The translations under genes and the position numbers were made by a program. A DNA stretch of 9,746 nucleotides. It comes from a virus. Lineage: Duplodnaviria; Heunggongvirae; Uroviricota; Caudoviricetes. The notes under the pieces were generated by a model, which saw only the letters and a list, made by a program, of their open reading frames with translations, had not been told where the DNA came from and did no database searches. Below are positions 2,004 through 9,746 of this stretch, one piece after another. Location of the stretch: the IMG/VR virus record IMGVR_UViG_2609459860_000011. One strand, given 5' to 3'. Each line of letters starts with the position of its first letter. The first letter of the stretch is position 1.

Positions 2004-3194
2004 ATGAGTGACTATCATCACGGCGTGCAGGTGCTGGAGATTAACGACGGCACCCGCGTCATTTCCACCGTATCCACGGCCATTGTCGGCATGGTCTGCA
2101 CGGCCAGCGATGCGGATGCGGAAACCTTCCCCCTCAATAAACCGGTGCTGATTACCAATGTGCAGAGCGCAATTGCAAAGGCCGGTAAAAAAGGCACGCT
2201 GGCGGCGTCGTTACAGGCCATCGCTGACCAGTCAAAACCGGTCACCGTTGTTGTGCGCGTGGAAGACGGCACCGGCGACGACGAGGAAACGAAACTTGCG
2301 CAGACCGTTTCCAATATCATCGGCACCACCGACGAAAACGGTCAGTACACCGGACTGAAAGCCCTGCTGGCGGCGGAGTCGGTAACCGGTGTTAAACCGC
2401 GCATTCTCGGTGTGCCGGGACTGGACACCAAAGAGGTGGCTGTTGCACTGGCATCAGTCTGTCAGAAGCTGCGCGCTTTCGGGTATATCAGCGCATGGGG
2501 CTGTAAGACCATTTCCGAGGTGAAAGCCTACCGCCAGAATTTCAGCCAGCGTGAACTGATGGTTATCTGGCCGGATTTCCTCGCATGGGATACGGTCACC
2601 AGTACCACCGCCACCGCGTATGCCACCGCCCGTGCGCTGGGTCTGCGCGCTAAAATCGACCAGGAGCAGGGCTGGCATAAAACGCTGTCCAACGTCGGGG
2701 TAAACGGTGTTACCGGCATCAGCGCGTCCGTATTCTGGGATTTGCAGGAGTCCGGCACCGATGCTGACCTGCTTAACGAGTCTGGCGTCACTACGCTGAT
2801 TCGCCGCGACGGTTTCCGCTTCTGGGGTAACCGTACCTGCTCTGATGACCCGCTGTTCCTCTTTGAAAACTACACCCGCACCGCGCAGGTGCTGGCCGAC
2901 ACGATGGCTGAGGCGCACATGTGGGCGGTGGACAAGCCCATCACCGCAACGCTGATTCGCGACATCATTGACGGCATCAATGCCAAATTCCGTGAGCTGA
3001 AAACAAACGGCTATATCGTGGATGGCTCATGCTGGTTCAGCGAAGAATCCAACGATGCGGAAACCCTCAAGGCCGGAAAACTGTATATTGACTACGACTA
3101 TACCCCGGTGCCTCCTCTTGAAAACCTGACCCTGCGCCAGCGTATTACCGATAAATACCTGGCAAATCTGGTCACCTCGGTTAACAGCAATTAA
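2004..3194 (+). CDS. FI: Contractile tail sheath protein (P2 gpFI)
   Basis: 396 aa, the same length as P2 FI; sequence MSDYHHGVQVLEINDGTRVI... recognised as P2-type sheath. RBS GGAG 8 nt upstream. Confidence 0.9.
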   Translation: MSDYHHGVQVLEINDGTRVISTVSTAIVGMVCTASDADAETFPLNKPVLITNVQSAIAKAGKKGTLAASLQAIADQSKPVTVVVRVEDGTGDDEETKLAQTVSNIIGTTDENGQYTGLKALLAAESVTGVKPRILGVPGLDTKEVAVALASVCQKLRAFGYISAWGCKTISEVKAYRQNFSQRELMVIWPDFLAWDTVTSTTATAYATARALGLRAKIDQEQGWHKTLSNVGVNGVTGISASVFWDLQESGTDADLLNESGVTTLIRRDGFRFWGNRTCSDDPLFLFENYTRTAQVLADTMAEAHMWAVDKPITATLIRDIIDGINAKFRELKTNGYIVDGSCWFSEESNDAETLKAGKLYIDYDYTPVPPLENLTLRQRITDKYLANLVTSVNSN

Positions 3195-3206: not shown

Positions 3207-3725
3207 ATGGCAATGCCGCGCAAACTCAAGTTAATGAACGTCTTTCTGAACGGCTACAGCTATCAGGGCGTCGCGAAGTCCGTCACGCTGCCAAAACTGA
3301 CCCGTAAGCTCGAAAACTATCGCGGTGCGGGAATGAACGGCAGCGCACCGGTAGACCTCGGCCTTGATGACGATGCGCTGTCAATGGAGTGGTCGCTCGG
3401 GGGCTTCCCGGATTCGGTTATCTGGGAGCTTTACGCCGCAACCAGTGTGGATGCTGTGCCGATTCGTTTTGCAGGCTCTTACCAGCGCGACGATACCGGC
3501 GAAACGGTGGCCGTCGAGGTGGTCATGCGTGGACGTCAGAAAGAAATCGACACCGGCGAGGGCAAACAGGGAGAAGACACCGAGTCGAAAATCTCCGTGG
3601 TCTGCACCTATTTCCGGCTGACGATGGACGGTAAGGAGCTGGTCGAAATCGACACCATCAACATGATTGAGAAGGTGAACGGCGTCGACCGGCTGGAGCA
3701 ACACCGCCGCAATATCGGCCTGTGA
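3207..3725 (+). CDS. FII: Tail tube protein (P2 gpFII)
   Basis: 172 aa, MAMPRKLKLMNVFLNGYSYQGVAKSVTLPKL...; RBS AAGGAG at 3193-3198; position immediately after the sheath gene as in P2. Confidence 0.9.
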   Translation: MAMPRKLKLMNVFLNGYSYQGVAKSVTLPKLTRKLENYRGAGMNGSAPVDLGLDDDALSMEWSLGGFPDSVIWELYAATSVDAVPIRFAGSYQRDDTGETVAVEVVMRGRQKEIDTGEGKQGEDTESKISVVCTYFRLTMDGKELVEIDTINMIEKVNGVDRLEQHRRNIGL

Positions 3726-4057: not shown

Positions 4058-4209
4058 CGTTTCCGAAAAATCTCTCGGTCGATGACCTGATGGCAGATGT
4101 GGCAGTGATATTTCACTGGCCGCCATCAGAACTGTATCCCATGAGCCTGACCGAACTCATCACATGGCGCGAAAAGGCGCTCCGGCGAAGCGGAAACACG
4201 AATGAGTAA
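3782..4209 (+). CDS. E+E': gpE+E' extended chaperone made by programmed -1 ribosomal frameshift (analogue of lambda G/GT)
   Basis: Slippery heptamer T-TTT-TTG at 4030-4036 in the E frame (GGT TTT TTG). The -1 frame is open from 4036 to TAA at 4207-4209 and encodes ...VAELGAVTFPKNLSVDDLMADVAVIFHWPPSELYPMSLTELITWREKALRRSGNTNE. The stop overlaps the T start codon (ATG 4202-4204). Total about 142 aa, as for P2 E+E'. Confidence 0.7.
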
Positions 4210-6649
4210 CAATGTAAAATTACAGGTATTGCTCAGGGCTGTTGACCAGGCATCCCGCCCGTTTAAATCCATCCGTACAGCGAGCAAGTCGCTGTCGGGG
4301 GATATCCGGGAAACACAAAAATCACTGCGCGAGCTGAACGGTCAGGCGTCCCGTATTGAGGGATTTCGCAAGACCAGTGCGCAGCTCGCCGTGACTGGTC
4401 ATGCACTTGAAAAGGCTCGGCAGGAAGCCGAAGCCCTTGCCACACAGTTTAAAAACACCGAACGTCCGACCCGTGCTCAGGCGAAAGTGCTGGAATCCGC
4501 AAAGCGTGCGGCGGAGGACTTACAGGCGAAATATAACCGCCTGACGGATTCCGTTAAACGCCAGCAGCGGGAACTGGCCGCTGTGGGAATTAATACCCGC
4601 AATCTTGCACATGATGAGCAGGGGCTGAAAAACCGTATCAGTGAAACCACCGCACAGCTTAACCGTCAGCGCGACGCACTGGCGCGTGTCAGTGCACAAC
4701 AGGCAAAACTTAACGCAGTCAAACAGCATTATCAGGCCGGAAAGGAACTGGCAGGAAATATGGCCTCAGTGGGCGCTGCCGGTGTGGGGATTGCTGCTGC
4801 GGGAACGATGGCCGGTGTTAAGCTGCTGATGCCCGGTTATGAGTTTGCGCAGAAAAACTCAGAATTGCAGGCTGTGCTCGGTGTGGCAAAAGACTCCGCC
4901 GAAATGGCCGCATTACGCAAACAGGCGCGCCAGCTCGGCGACAATACCGCCGCCTCGGCGGATGATGCGGCCGGTGCACAGATAATCATCGCGAAAGCGG
5001 GTGGGGATGTTGATGCCATTCAGGCGGCAACGCCGGTCACGCTGAATATGGCGCTGGCGAACCGCCGCACGATGGAAGAAAACGCCGCCCTGCTGATGGG
5101 GATGAAATCCGCCTTTCAGCTTTCAAACGATAAGGTCGCTCATATCGGGGATGTTCTCTCCATGACGATGAACAAAACCGCCGCCGATTTTGACGGCATG
5201 AGCGATGCGCTGACCTATGCCGCACCTGTGGCAAAAAATGCCGGTGTCAGCATTGAAGAAACCGCCGCAATGGTCGGGGCGCTGCATGATGCAAAAATTA
5301 CAGGCTCAATGGCGGGGACGGGAAGCCGTGCCGTGTTAAGTCGCCTGCAGGCACCAACGGGAAAAGCATGGGATGCACTCAAAGAGCTTGGCGTGAAAAC
5401 CTCAGACAGCAAGGGAAACACCCGGCCAATATTTACCATTCTGAAAGAAATGCAGGCCAGTTTTGAGAAAAACCGGCTCGGTACTGCCCAGCAGGCTGAA
5501 TACATGAAAACTATTTTCGGGGAGGAGGCCAGCTCAGCCGCCGCCGTGCTGATGACTGCCGCCTCAACCGGAAAGCTGGACAAACTGACCGCTGCGTTTA
5601 AAGCCTCAGACGGGAAGACTGCCGAGCTGGTAAATATCATGCAGGACAACCTCGGCGGTGACTTTAAGGAGTTTCAGTCCGCTTATGAGGCGGTGGGGAC
5701 TGACCTGTTTGACCAGCAGGAAGGCGCACTGCGTAAGCTCACGCAGACGGCCACAAAGTATGTGTTAAAACTCGACGGCTGGATACAGAAAAACAAATCA
5801 CTGGCGTCAACCATTGGTCTCATTGCCGGTGGCGCACTGGCGCTTACTGGCATCATCGGTGCCATTGGCCTCGTAGCCTGGCCGGTTATCACCGGCATCA
5901 ATGCCATCATCGCGGCAGCAGGCGCAATGGGGGCAATCTTCACGACGGTTGGCAGTGCCGTTATGACGGCCATCGGGGCGATTAGCTGGCCGGTTGTGGC
6001 CGTGGTGGCCGCCATTGTCGCCGGGGCGTTGCTTATCCGTAAATACTGGGAGCCTGTCAGCGCATTCTTTGGCGGTGTGGTGGAAGGGCTGAAAGCGGCA
6101 TTTGCGCCGGTGGGGGAACTGTTCACGCCACTTAAGCCGGTGTTTGACTGGCTGGGTGAAAAGTTACAGGCCGTGTGGCAGTGGTTTAAAAACCTGATTG
6201 CCCCGGTCAAAGCCACACAGGACACCCTGAACCGTTGCCGTGACACGGGCGTCATGTTCGGGCAGGCACTGGCTGACGCGTTAATGCTGCCGCTTAATGC
6301 GTTCAACAAACTGCGCAGCGGTATTGACTGGGTACTGGAAAAACTCGGTGTTATCAACAAAGAGTCAGACACACTTGACCAGACCGCCGCAAGGACTAAT
6401 GCCGTCACGTATGGCACCGGTGGTTATATTCCGGCGACCAGCTCTTATGCAGGCTATCAGGCTTATCAGCCGGTCACGGCACCGGCTGGTCGCTCTTATG
6501 TGGACCAGAGTAAAAACGAATATCACATCAGCCTGACGGGCGGTACTGCGCCAGGGACACAGCTCGACCGCCAGTTACAGGATGCACTCGAAAAATACGA
6601 GCGGGATAAACGTGCGCGCGCCCGTGCCAGCATGATGCATGACGGTTAA
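4202..6649 (+). CDS. T: Tail tape measure protein (P2 gpT)
   Basis: 815 aa, the same length as P2 T. N-terminal coiled-coil-like Gln/Ala/Arg/Leu-rich region and a central Gly/Ala/Ile-rich hydrophobic stretch typical of tape measure proteins. Start is translationally coupled to the E' end. Confidence 0.9.
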   Translation: MSNNVKLQVLLRAVDQASRPFKSIRTASKSLSGDIRETQKSLRELNGQASRIEGFRKTSAQLAVTGHALEKARQEAEALATQFKNTERPTRAQAKVLESAKRAAEDLQAKYNRLTDSVKRQQRELAAVGINTRNLAHDEQGLKNRISETTAQLNRQRDALARVSAQQAKLNAVKQHYQAGKELAGNMASVGAAGVGIAAAGTMAGVKLLMPGYEFAQKNSELQAVLGVAKDSAEMAALRKQARQLGDNTAASADDAAGAQIIIAKAGGDVDAIQAATPVTLNMALANRRTMEENAALLMGMKSAFQLSNDKVAHIGDVLSMTMNKTAADFDGMSDALTYAAPVAKNAGVSIEETAAMVGALHDAKITGSMAGTGSRAVLSRLQAPTGKAWDALKELGVKTSDSKGNTRPIFTILKEMQASFEKNRLGTAQQAEYMKTIFGEEASSAAAVLMTAASTGKLDKLTAAFKASDGKTAELVNIMQDNLGGDFKEFQSAYEAVGTDLFDQQEGALRKLTQTATKYVLKLDGWIQKNKSLASTIGLIAGGALALTGIIGAIGLVAWPVITGINAIIAAAGAMGAIFTTVGSAVMTAIGAISWPVVAVVAAIVAGALLIRKYWEPVSAFFGGVVEGLKAAFAPVGELFTPLKPVFDWLGEKLQAVWQWFKNLIAPVKATQDTLNRCRDTGVMFGQALADALMLPLNAFNKLRSGIDWVLEKLGVINKESDTLDQTAARTNAVTYGTGGYIPATSSYAGYQAYQPVTAPAGRSYVDQSKNEYHISLTGGTAPGTQLDRQLQDALEKYERDKRARARASMMHDG

Positions 6650-6663
6650 GGAGGTGACGAAAA

Positions 6664-7143
6664 ATGATGCTCGCGTTAGGTATGTTTGTTTTTATGCGCC
6701 AGACGCTGCCACACCAGACCATGCAGCGTGAATCAGATTATCGCTGGCCGTCAAATTCCCGTATCGGTAAACGGGATGCCTACCAGTTTCTCGGTGTGGG
6801 TGAGGAAAACATTACGCTTGCAGGCGTGCTTTATCCCGAACTGACCGGCGGGAAGCTGACGATGACCACGCTCAGGCTGATGGCAGAGGAAGGCCGGGCG
6901 TGGCCGTTGCTGGATGGCACCGGCATGATTTACGGCATGTATGTCATCAGCAGGGTGAGTGAAACAGGGAGTATTTTCTTTGCAGACGGCACACCCCGGA
7001 AAATTGATTTTACGCTGTCACTCACCCGCGTTGATGAATCACTGGCCGCGCTTTATGGCGATATCGGTAAACAGGCGGAATCGCTCATCGGTAAGGCTGG
7101 CAGTATGGCGACTAAATTCACGGGTATGACGGGGGCGGGATAA
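6664..7143 (+). CDS. U: Tail protein gpU
   Basis: 159 aa, MMLALGMFVFMRQTLPHQTMQRESDYRWPS...; RBS AGGAGG at 6648-6653; stop TAA 7141-7143 overlaps the D start by 1 nt (TAATG). Confidence 0.85.
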   Translation: MMLALGMFVFMRQTLPHQTMQRESDYRWPSNSRIGKRDAYQFLGVGEENITLAGVLYPELTGGKLTMTTLRLMAEEGRAWPLLDGTGMIYGMYVISRVSETGSIFFADGTPRKIDFTLSLTRVDESLAALYGDIGKQAESLIGKAGSMATKFTGMTGAG

Positions 7144-8306
7144 TGCTGGATGCGCTGACATTTGATGCAGGCAGTACGCTGACGCCGGATTACATGCTGA
7201 TGCTCGACAGCAGGGATATTACCGGCAATATCAGCGACCGTCTGATGAGCATGACCCTGACGGATAACCGGGGCTTTGAGGCTGATCAGCTTGATATTGA
7301 ACTGAACGATGCCGACGGGCAGGTCGAACTGCCGGTTCGTGGCGCTGTTCTGACGGTGTATATCGGCTGGAAAGGTTTTGCCCTGGTATGCAAAGGGAAA
7401 TTCACCGTTGATGAGGTAGAACACCGGGGCACGCCGGATGTGGTCGCCATCCGGGCCCGGAGTGCAGATTTTCGTGGCACGCTCAATTCCCGCCGTGAAG
7501 GCTCCTGGCATGACACCACGCTCGGTGCGATTGTTGAGGCGATAGCCTCCCGTAACAGGCTGGAAGCCAGTGTCGCTCCGTCACTGGCCGGAATTAAAAT
7601 CCCGCACATCGACCAGTCGCAGGAGTCTGATGCAAAATTCCTGACCCGCCTTGCTGAACGCAACGGCGGTGAGGTGTCGGTAAAAATGGGAAAACTGTTG
7701 TTTCTCAAAGCGGGGCAGGGGGGGACGGCCAGCGGTAAAAAAATCCCGCAGATTACCATCACCCGCAGCGACGGCGACCGTCATCATTTTGCGATTGCTG
7801 ACCGTGGAGCCTACACCGGCGTAACGGCAAAGTGGTTACACACCAAAGACCCGAAGCCGCAAAAGCAGAAGGTAAAACTGAAACGCAAAAAGAAAGAGAA
7901 ACACCTGCGCGCACTGGAGCACCCGAAAGCGAAACCGGTCACGCAGAAGAAAGCGCCAAAAGTACCGGAAGCGCGCGAAGGTGAATACATGGCCGGTGAG
8001 GCTGACAATGTTTTTGCCCTGACCACGGTATATGCCACGAAAGCGCAGGCCATGCGCGCCGCTCAGGCGAAGTGGGATAAACTGCAACGGGGCGTTGCGG
8101 AGTTCTCCATCAGCCTGGCTACCGGTCGGGCTGATATTTACACGGAAACACCGGTTAAAGTGTCAGGCTTTAAGCGCGTCATAGACGAGCAGGACTGGAC
8201 AATCACTAAGGTGACACATTTTCTGAATAATAGCGGCTTCACGACGTCCTTAGAGCTTGAGGTCAGGCTTTCTGATGTGGAGTACGAAACAGAAGATGAA
8301 GAATGA
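7143..8306 (+). CDS. D: Tail protein gpD (P2 late gene D)
   Basis: 387 aa, the same length as P2 D; MLDALTFDAGSTLTPDYMLMLDSRDITGNISDRLMSMTLTDNRGFEADQLDIELNDADGQ...; last gene of the FI-D tail operon. Confidence 0.85.
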   Translation: MLDALTFDAGSTLTPDYMLMLDSRDITGNISDRLMSMTLTDNRGFEADQLDIELNDADGQVELPVRGAVLTVYIGWKGFALVCKGKFTVDEVEHRGTPDVVAIRARSADFRGTLNSRREGSWHDTTLGAIVEAIASRNRLEASVAPSLAGIKIPHIDQSQESDAKFLTRLAERNGGEVSVKMGKLLFLKAGQGGTASGKKIPQITITRSDGDRHHFAIADRGAYTGVTAKWLHTKDPKPQKQKVKLKRKKKEKHLRALEHPKAKPVTQKKAPKVPEAREGEYMAGEADNVFALTTVYATKAQAMRAAQAKWDKLQRGVAEFSISLATGRADIYTETPVKVSGFKRVIDEQDWTITKVTHFLNNSGFTTSLELEVRLSDVEYETEDEE

Positions 8307-8324
8307 TGTGTTTTATTTATCTGT

Positions 8325-8353
8325 TTGTTTTGTAAGGATAAATTAACTAAAAT
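8325..8353 (+). promoter_or_regulatory. Candidate sigma70 promoter for ogr
   Basis: -35 TTGTTT (8325-8330), 17-bp spacer, -10 TAAAAT (8348-8353); would give a 5' UTR of about 28 nt before the ogr ATG. ogr is known to have its own promoter in P2. Confidence 0.35.
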
Positions 8354-8387
8354 GGCACCATCAACAAAACCGGAAGAGGTGCTCGCG

Positions 8388-8606
8388 ATGTTTCATTGTC
8401 CTTTATGCCAGCATGCCGCACATGCGCGTACAAGTCGCTATATCACTGACACGACAAAAGAGCGTTATCACCAGTGTCAGAACGTGAATTGCAGCGCCAC
8501 GTTCATCACTTATGAGTCGGTACAGCGATACATCGTGAAGCCGGGAGAAGTCCACGCAGTAAGGCCGCACCCGTTGCCGTCAGGGCAGCAAATTATGTGG
8601 ATGTGA
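8388..8606 (+). CDS. ogr: Ogr zinc-finger late-gene transcriptional activator (Ogr/Delta family)
   Basis: 72 aa, MFHCPLCQHAAHARTSRYITDTTKERYHQCQNVNCSATFITYESVQRYIVKPGEVHAVRPHPLPSGQQIMWM; Cys4 motif CPLC...CQNVNC. RBS GGAAGAGG at 8372-8379. The ORF-track start at 8325 is an in-frame upstream extension with no RBS. Confidence 0.85.
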   Translation: MFHCPLCQHAAHARTSRYITDTTKERYHQCQNVNCSATFITYESVQRYIVKPGEVHAVRPHPLPSGQQIMWM

Positions 8607-8617
8607 TCACAAAAATA

Positions 8618-8645
8618 GCCCCTCAGTTGAGGGGCTTTATTTATG
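8618..8645 (+). terminator. Rho-independent terminator after ogr
   Basis: AGCCCCTC-AGTT-GAGGGGCT (8-bp GC-rich stem, 4-nt loop) followed by TTATTTAT. Confidence 0.6.
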
Positions 8646-8650
8646 GTCGA

Positions 8651-8669
8651 TGTGGACGCTATGTGGACA
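8651..8669 (+). other. Direct repeats ATGTGGAC x2 (a third, ATGTGGAT, at 8595-8602): candidate integrase arm-type binding sites of the prophage att arm
   Basis: gATGTGGACgctATGTGGACAg between the ogr terminator and the host-side terminator. I recall, without certainty, that P2 Int arm sites resemble TGTGGACA. An IHF-like site TATCATCAGGTTA (8693-8705) lies just downstream. Confidence 0.3.
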
Positions 8670-8734
8670 GTGGTTTATATAAATCCATTTATATCATCAG
8701 GTTAGGTGATTTTTTGTGACACCATCCCTGTCTT

Positions 8735-8762
8735 CCCCCACATGATGTGGGGGTTTTTTTTT
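8735..8762 (+). terminator. Strong rho-independent terminator; possibly the duplicated 3' end/terminator of the upstream host locus (cpxP/CpxQ) forming the att core
   Basis: CCCCCAC-ATGAT-GTGGGGG followed by a run of 9 T (8754-8762). It sits 81 bp upstream of fieF. Confidence 0.65.
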
Positions 8763-8843
8763 ATCCTCAATTTGCCTGCTGCTTAATGCATTGCAGATGA
8801 TTTGCTTCCGTTATACTAGCGTCAGTTGATAGCGGGAGTATTT

Positions 8844-9746
8844 ATGAATCAATCTTATGGACGGCTGGTCAGTCGGGCGGCGATTGCTGCGACGGCGATG
8901 GCTTCGTTGCTATTGCTGATTAAAATTTTTGCATGGTGGTATACCGGGTCGGTGAGTATTCTCGCCGCGCTGGTGGATTCGCTGGTGGATATCGGCGCGT
9001 CGTTGACGAATTTACTGGTGGTGCGATATTCCCTGCAACCTGCCGACGATAATCACTCGTTTGGTCACGGTAAAGCAGAGTCCCTCGCGGCGCTGGCGCA
9101 AAGTATGTTTATCTCCGGTTCGGCACTATTCCTGTTTTTGACGGGTATTCAACATCTGATATCTCCAACACCGATGACAGATCCAGGCGTCGGGGTTATC
9201 GTGACAATTGTGGCGCTAATTTGTACGATTATCCTTGTCTCGTTTCAGCGTTGGGTGGTGCGGCGGACGCAAAGCCAGGCGGTGCGGGCTGATATGCTAC
9301 ATTACCAGTCTGATGTTATGATGAACGGCGCAATTCTGCTGGCGCTGGGGTTGTCCTGGTACGGCTGGCATCGCGCCGATGCTCTGTTTGCATTGGGAAT
9401 CGGCATCTATATTTTATATAGCGCGTTACGCATGGGATATGAGGCGGTACAGTCATTACTGGATCGCGCATTGCCTGATGAGGAACGGCAAGAAATTATT
9501 GATATCGTGACTTCCTGGCCGGGTGTTAGCGGCGCTCACGATCTTCGCACGCGGCAGTCAGGGCCGACCCGCTTTATTCAGATTCATTTGGAAATGGAAG
9601 ACTCTCTGCCTTTGGTTCAGGCACATATGGTGGCGGATCAGGTAGAGCAGGCTATTTTACGGCGTTTTCCGGGATCGGATGTAATTATCCATCAGGACCC
9701 CTGTTCCGTCGTACCCAGGGAGGGTAAACGGTCTATGCTTTCATAA
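8844..9746 (+). CDS. fieF: Cation-diffusion-facilitator family Fe(II)/Zn(II) efflux transporter FieF (YiiP)
   Basis: 300 aa, [51 protein letters not shown]..., recognised as E. coli FieF; RBS GGGAG at 8833-8837; TAA at 9744-9746. The ORF-track start at 8826 is an upstream extension. Candidate -10 TATACT at 8812-8817. Confidence 0.9.

Follow-up and report, generated by a model that had tools for sequence, protein, structure and literature searches.

The right-hand end of the window, as we call the whole 9746-nt stretch of viral DNA analyzed here, consists of the end of a WPhi-type P2-like prophage (tail genes, D and ogr) joined to the host gene fieF. Within it, positions 8647–8765 very probably represent the attR (P arm and core, POB′) of this prophage, inserted at the cpxP terminator between cpxP and fieF, a reading to which we assign a probability of about 92%. 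A WPhi-type attR between cpxP and fieF is a kind of site that has already been characterized, and its location has been described before. An earlier note had proposed a putative attP arm of a tyrosine integrase at this place, with arm sites, IHF site and core in that order; comparison with WPhi, P2, the complete genome N68 and K-12 lends support to this layout, and ogr, which the note took to adjoin attP in P2-type genomes, does hold that position in both WPhi and P2.

The junction between prophage and host

The phage part of the window carries P2-type late genes, named by synteny with the N68 prophage: the sheath (2004–3194), tube (3207–3725) and tape measure (4202–6649) genes, U (6664–7143) and D (7143–8306). 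Every late gene in the window is an intact open reading frame. The final phage gene before the attachment site is ogr, encoding the late-gene activator (8388–8606, plus strand; Pfam Ogr_Delta, E = 1.1e-21). A rho-independent terminator for ogr and the late F operon follows on the same strand at 8617–8645; according to the terminator scan, its stem-loop AGCCCCTCA-GT-TGAGGGGCT (8617–8636) leads into a T-rich tail, and it aligns with the P2 feature annotated as 'rho-independent terminator for ogr transcript and F operon'.

At the opposite end of the window, positions 28–1944 form an invertible tail-fibre cassette resembling the Gin/Cin/Pin host-range switches. It comprises a tail-fibre assembly gene on the plus strand (28–411), a second such gene on the minus strand (383–826), an alternative fibre C-terminus, also on the minus strand (829–1323), and a plus-strand serine recombinase with Resolvase and HTH_7 domains (ORF 1174–1944, probable start near 1357). 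No inverted repeat flanking the cassette was found inside the window, so its left crossover site presumably lies upstream of the window. N68 has a different gene at the corresponding position.

The boundary between phage and host was delimited from both sides. Similarity to the records of WPhi-group phages (WPhi, L-413C, fiAA91-ss and many others) ends at position 8765 of the window, whereas prophage-free E. coli, including K-12 MG1655, is similar to the window only from 8718 on, with cpxP lying immediately upstream in these genomes. Strand exchange must therefore have occurred within 8718–8765. This interval falls inside the 8706–8765 range in which the junction had been predicted, and host DNA does not begin before 8650, an outcome that the earlier note had named as damaging to its proposal. 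From 8766 to 9746 the window is host DNA, containing on the plus strand the fieF upstream region and fieF itself (ATG at 8844), which is annotated in all E. coli genome matches. The analysis narrows the right prophage boundary to 48 nt (8718–8765) and marks the prophage as WPhi-type; beyond this its value for annotation is small, since both att arms of the P2 type and the integration site of WPhi are known from earlier work.

The common core (8718–8765, plus strand), defined by the identity of attP and attB in the K-12 and WPhi comparison, reads GACACCATCCCTGTCTTCCCCCACATGATGTGGGGG-T9-ATC in the window, and the three-way alignment of window, WPhi and K-12 gives GACACCATCCCTGTCTTCCCCCACATG(A/C)TGTGGGGG-T8-ATC. 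It is 47 nt long in WPhi and K-12 and 48 nt long in the window because of a ninth T in the T-run at 8754–8762, which has eight in WPhi, N68 and K-12. In the host, the core is the rho-independent terminator of cpxP. Its 19-bp palindrome, CCCCCACAT-G-ATGTGGGGG at 8735–8753, is the cpxP terminator hairpin, and the terminator scan accordingly returned a second hairpin at 8735–8762, made up of the same palindrome followed by nine T. WPhi attB has been placed at MG1655 coordinate 4104392 (PMC3448106), and cpxP-fieF is the site given for 'Wphi1', a prophage of E. coli W (PMC3032704).

A single substitution distinguishes core sequences: position 8745, a base of the hairpin loop, is A in the phage, in lysogens and apparently in most E. 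coli, and C in K-12; N68 has A at both prophage ends. Among all complete E. coli genomes, no attR or attL junction with C at 8745 was found, the best matches being one mismatch off (99.2%). This search thus yielded no informative hybrid junction with which the crossover could be mapped inside the core.

N68, the closest complete genome, is 99.4% identical to the window over positions 7000–9746 and provides the other prophage end, with a full prophage in the order cpxP, attL, int, C, cox ... ogr, attR, fieF. The identical core is present at both ends, its attL copy adjoining int and cpxP. About 90 bp beyond the attL core, just before int, lies GTGTGGACACTATGTGGACAC, which contains two direct repeats 11 bp apart, so that the N68 P′ arm carries TGTGGAC twice; the same P′ repeats are seen in WPhi attP (L001 3040–3060). 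The core sought at the int-proximal end is hence in place, together with matching repeats, and absence of the repeats from the other arm or from related phages, which would have spoken against the proposal, is not observed: they occur in N68 attL, in WPhi and in P2. The window itself is without int; the N68 integrase has Int_N and Phage_integrase domains and is 99% identical to WPhi Int.

Over the stretch from ogr through the core, the window is 99% identical to WPhi attP and to the cpxP-fieF attR type (E. coli W Wphi1, L-413C, fiAA91-ss), with the same arm repeats, IHF-like site, core (47 nt in WPhi) and host site. The window differs from WPhi by two substitutions in the arm (T for G at 8680 and A for C at 8711) and by nine rather than eight T in the core T-run. 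The right flank differs in kind: in WPhi attP it is the P′ arm, whereas in the window, a recombinant attR, it is host DNA.

Arm repeats and the IHF-like site

Exact copies of ATGTGGA occur near the junction at 8595–8601, 8650–8656 and 8661–8667. All three copies reported in the earlier note (at 8595, 8651 and 8662) exist and the first was placed correctly, whereas the others start at 8650 and 8661; overall, three of its four coordinates, those of these two repeats and of the IHF site, were one base too high. The second and third copies extend to identical 8-mers ATGTGGAC at 8650–8657 and 8661–8668, in direct orientation and 11 bp apart from start to start. With the next base included they read ATGTGGACg (8650) and ATGTGGACa (8661), matching the consensus tgTGGaCa published for P2-type arm repeats (PMC3448106). 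We therefore designate positions 8647–8674 on the plus strand, TCGATGTGGACGCTATGTGGACAGTGGT, as the P arm with two predicted integrase arm-type sites, on the strength of the P2 alignment, the published consensus and the relatives of the phage; the limits of this range were set by alignment to the P2 record, where the matching stretch is annotated as an Int binding site ('Int, P arm').

Only the copies at 8650 and 8661 can be kept as arm sites out of the three that had been suggested, the copy at 8595 being the coding end of ogr. It coincides with the last codons of that gene, ATG-TGG-ATG-TGA (Met-Trp-Met-stop), upstream of the ogr terminator, and lies outside the annotated Int P-arm binding site of P2. 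Its occurrence is also limited to phages with ogr in this place, and it is absent from SEN4, phiT5282H and ev239, in which the same two-repeat arm stands behind a gene other than ogr. A weak arm-like sequence, TATGGTC at 8642, located 9 bp upstream of the first repeat, was not counted either; it overlaps the terminator tail, is off the 11-bp register and is absent from P2.

The IHF-like sequence TATCATCAGGTTA lies at 8692–8704, with one mismatch to WATCAANNNNTTR. The near-consensus IHF site claimed earlier is thus present between the repeats and the core, though at 8692–8704 and not at 8693–8705, and this location of the putative site is the one that a P2-type attP or attR requires. The element aligns column for column with TTTCAATTTATTG of P2, which lies within the annotated IHF site of that phage, and the A/T-rich block ATAAATCC(A/T)TTTAT just upstream of it is kept in both window and P2. 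From the consensus match and the P2 alignment, we delimit a predicted IHF binding region at 8678–8711 (plus strand), composed of the A/T-rich element followed by TATCATCAGGTTA. The second arm site and the IHF consensus are 30 bp apart in window and P2 alike.

We also observed a perfect or near-perfect IHF consensus (e.g. TATCAATCACTTA) that begins at the last four bases of the core and extends into the P′ arm. Such a match is present in every phage using the cpxP-terminator core, across four genera (WPhi, L001 2954–2966; N68 attL, L005, minus strand, ~35000–35012; L007 630; L008 1542; L009 619), and the corresponding host sequence at attB and attR, TATCCTCAATTTG (window 8762–8774), has two mismatches to the IHF consensus. 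The P′-side match may represent a second IHF site; the P2 record annotates none there.

Motif counts on the window alone are weak and not statistically compelling. ATGTGGA is present in five copies against 1.5 expected (at least five in 5 of 200 shuffles) and TGTGGAC in three against 1.2 (at least three in 21 of 200), and exact 8-mers repeated 8–15 bp apart occur at four separate places, with ~1.5 expected at random. The IHF-like match, with its one mismatch, is no commoner in the window than chance allows, since the pattern at up to one mismatch occurs nine times against 6.6 expected (at least nine in 49 of 200 shuffles). Three ATGTGGA copies within 75 bp were seen in none of 2000 random sequences, although this test was post hoc. 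As these counts decide little by themselves, we based the case on what other phages and genomes show.

The P2 record (NC_001895) lists, in order, the ogr terminator, 'Int, P arm' (24293–24320), 'IHF' (24324–24357), the attP core, 'Cox' and 'Int, P′ arm', and the window aligns with the first three of these features. P2 and the window share ogr, the terminator, two direct arm repeats 11 bp apart, the IHF site and the core in the same order, and their sequences can be aligned as far as the IHF site. P2 differs in its 27-nt core, AAAAAATAAGCCCGTGTAAGGGAGATT, and its host site, and its first repeat is ATGTGGTC. The IHF site lies ~31 bp from the presumed crossover in P2 and ~52 bp from it in the window; this difference of 21 bp corresponds to roughly two helical turns, and the geometry of the two sites is not identical.

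Phage 186 belongs to the same family and likewise has two or more direct repeats in each arm flanking the core, but these repeats follow the consensus tgccGCCActt, and tRNA genes serve as its integration sites (PMC3448106). This motif is lacking near the window junction, with no match at up to two mismatches anywhere in 8300–9746. Of the arm sites of P2, WPhi and 186, against which the repeats were to be compared, they thus fit the P2-type consensus tgTGGaCa and WPhi attP, and not the 186-type consensus.

A wider comparison covered seven Peduoviridae att regions, in which the arm repeats are always 11 bp apart, in both arms. Repeats on both arms were also found in P2, YpM115, SEN4, phiT5282H and ev239, those of the P′ arm being inverted in ev239. 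SEN4 and phiT5282H have TGTAGAC in place of TGTGGAC in both arms, a matched change of the kind that would be expected if one protein domain read all four sites. In P2 and YpM115 the shared P arm continues as far as the IHF site, beyond which different cores follow, so that arm and core modules have evidently been exchanged independently. In every phage with the cpxP-terminator core, the distance from the second arm site to the palindrome is 73–75 bp, while the intervening sequence has diverged. Judged by sequence comparison, the cpxP-terminator core is a shared integration hotspot.

Proposed recombination and alternative readings

The mechanism that we propose is derived from the P2 and lambda models. 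The phage tyrosine integrase would use its N-terminal arm-binding domain to recognize the two ATGTGGAC repeats as P-arm sites, and host IHF would bind the A/T-rich element together with TATCATCAGGTTA (8678–8711). The sharp bend imposed by IHF would allow the arm-bound integrase to reach the core ~70–80 bp away. Strands would then be exchanged within the 47/48-nt core that phage and host have in common, probably in the region of its 19-bp palindrome, whose arms would act as inverted core-type sites flanking an overlap of ~7 bp; the exact cleavage positions are likewise predicted from these models. Integration would put the P arm beside fieF, as in the window, and would leave cpxP flanked by the P′ arm, which carries two matching repeats, the presumed Cox sites and int. 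Excision would require the attR arm, attL, Int, IHF and phage Cox. At attR, the second terminator copy separates the phage late genes from fieF and might insulate the one from the other.

Lambda attP and attR, the paradigm for integrases with both arm and core binding, likewise combine arm-type sites, an IHF bend and a core. As with the arm in the window, the lambda P arm goes to attR, away from int. Lambda differs in the sequence and number of its arm sites and has a 15-bp core, compared with 47 nt in the type seen here; Xis of lambda binds the P arm, whereas the P2 directionality factor binds the P′ (attL) side.

Among the alternatives, the one that survives best, though we consider it unlikely, is that the attR is an inert scar left at the right end of a prophage that has decayed beyond excision, in which the sites would be functionless relics. 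Both int and attL lie outside the window, and remnants of this kind do occur: EM22-18-53 (L004 689–1247) keeps attR and ogr next to a partial tail gene fused to a partial D. The attR of the window is found in 788 of 5426 complete E. coli genomes (~14%), and the matching attL in only 530. Against decay stand the uninterrupted late-gene ORFs of the window, the near-identity of its att arm to that of the active phage WPhi (two substitutions and one extra T only) and the complete prophage of N68, the closest genome. Even if true, the scar reading would alter the present activity of the sites and not their identity.

Much less probable is that the direct repeats bind the directionality factor Cox instead of integrase. 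WPhi Cox recognizes sequences other than those of P2 Cox, which leaves room for this reading, as does the general form of directionality-factor sites. These, too, are typically direct repeats about one helical turn apart, and an 11-bp spacing like that of the repeats is common among them (PMC7498355). However, the homologous P2 sequence is annotated as an Int site, with the P2 Cox site on the opposite side of the core; the same repeat occurs in both arms, as arm-type Int sites would; and the repeats are unlike the cox-box consensus TTAAAG/CNCA.

Hardly credible is a coincidental origin of the repeats and the IHF-like site in the spacer that separates the ogr terminator from the junction, with the core alone sufficing for recombination. 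The weak motif statistics of the window on its own would allow it, but the number, spacing and position of the repeats are conserved across peduoviruses with differing flanks and cores, the TGTAGAC variant recurs in both arms of one phage, and the P2 record assigns Int and IHF binding to the homologous sequence. We thus retain the reading of 8647–8765 as a WPhi-type attR, with sites for integrase and IHF predicted in its P arm.

The core within the CpxQ small RNA gene

Of note, the integration site, a very common one that is occupied in ~14% of complete E. coli genomes, sits within the gene for the small RNA CpxQ. The cpxP 3′ UTR is processed to CpxQ, a 58-nt Hfq-dependent sRNA that comprises nearly the entire UTR (PMC9438474, PMC6755755). 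Counting 58 nt back from the end of the T-run places the start of CpxQ near K-12 position 1187 (record L002), so that the sRNA spans 1187–1244; with the core starting at 1201, the core covers approximately nucleotides 15–58, i.e. the 3′ part and ~44 of the 58 nt. Within the literature searched, we found no paper linking CpxQ to an integrase or an attachment site.

In this arrangement, attL keeps an intact CpxQ and cpxP terminator, and attR in the window holds a second copy (8718–8762) without the 5′ seed. Because the phage brings its own copy of the core and the 5′ seed at attL is host-derived, both the cpxP terminator and CpxQ are preserved upon integration. Integration into CpxQ parallels that of phages entering tRNA or sRNA genes, and P2-type prophages have been listed at rybB and cyaR (PMC3032704). 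The same cpxP-terminator core was observed in four Peduoviridae genera, Peduovirus, Senquatrovirus, Novemvirus and Evevirus, in phages from Escherichia, Salmonella and Enterobacter (L007, L008, L009; records SW3, SW5 and SI7) whose arms have otherwise diverged.

The CpxQ copy at attR is fused to the phage P arm. It retains the internal single-stranded region, the terminator and the U-tail, and on these features it should bind Hfq. Read-through of the ogr terminator could then yield a phage-driven CpxQ-like RNA or an Hfq decoy, which would make the core more than a recombination target; we regard this as a long shot. If it held, expression of the phage late genes would be coupled to the envelope-stress response, and the strong conservation of CpxQ would account for the one core used by peduoviruses of four genera. 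The promoter scan detected no sigma-70-like promoter in 8250–8900 and so gives no support for an independent promoter driving the attR copy of the core.

An Rfam scan of 8300–8900 returned nothing at gathering score, the one notable hit being a sub-threshold match to Hrs1 on the wrong strand. This family (RF02628, Hfq-regulated sRNA 1) matches the cpxP 3′ UTR on the strand opposite cpxP, at L002 1172–1244 in K-12 (41.4 bits, E = 1.8e-6; gathering score 56.4) and at 8717–8761 on the minus strand of the window. The Hrs1 model starts with a run of A followed by a hairpin and resembles a CpxQ orthologue in reverse complement; possibly, the wrong strand was used to build the Rfam family.
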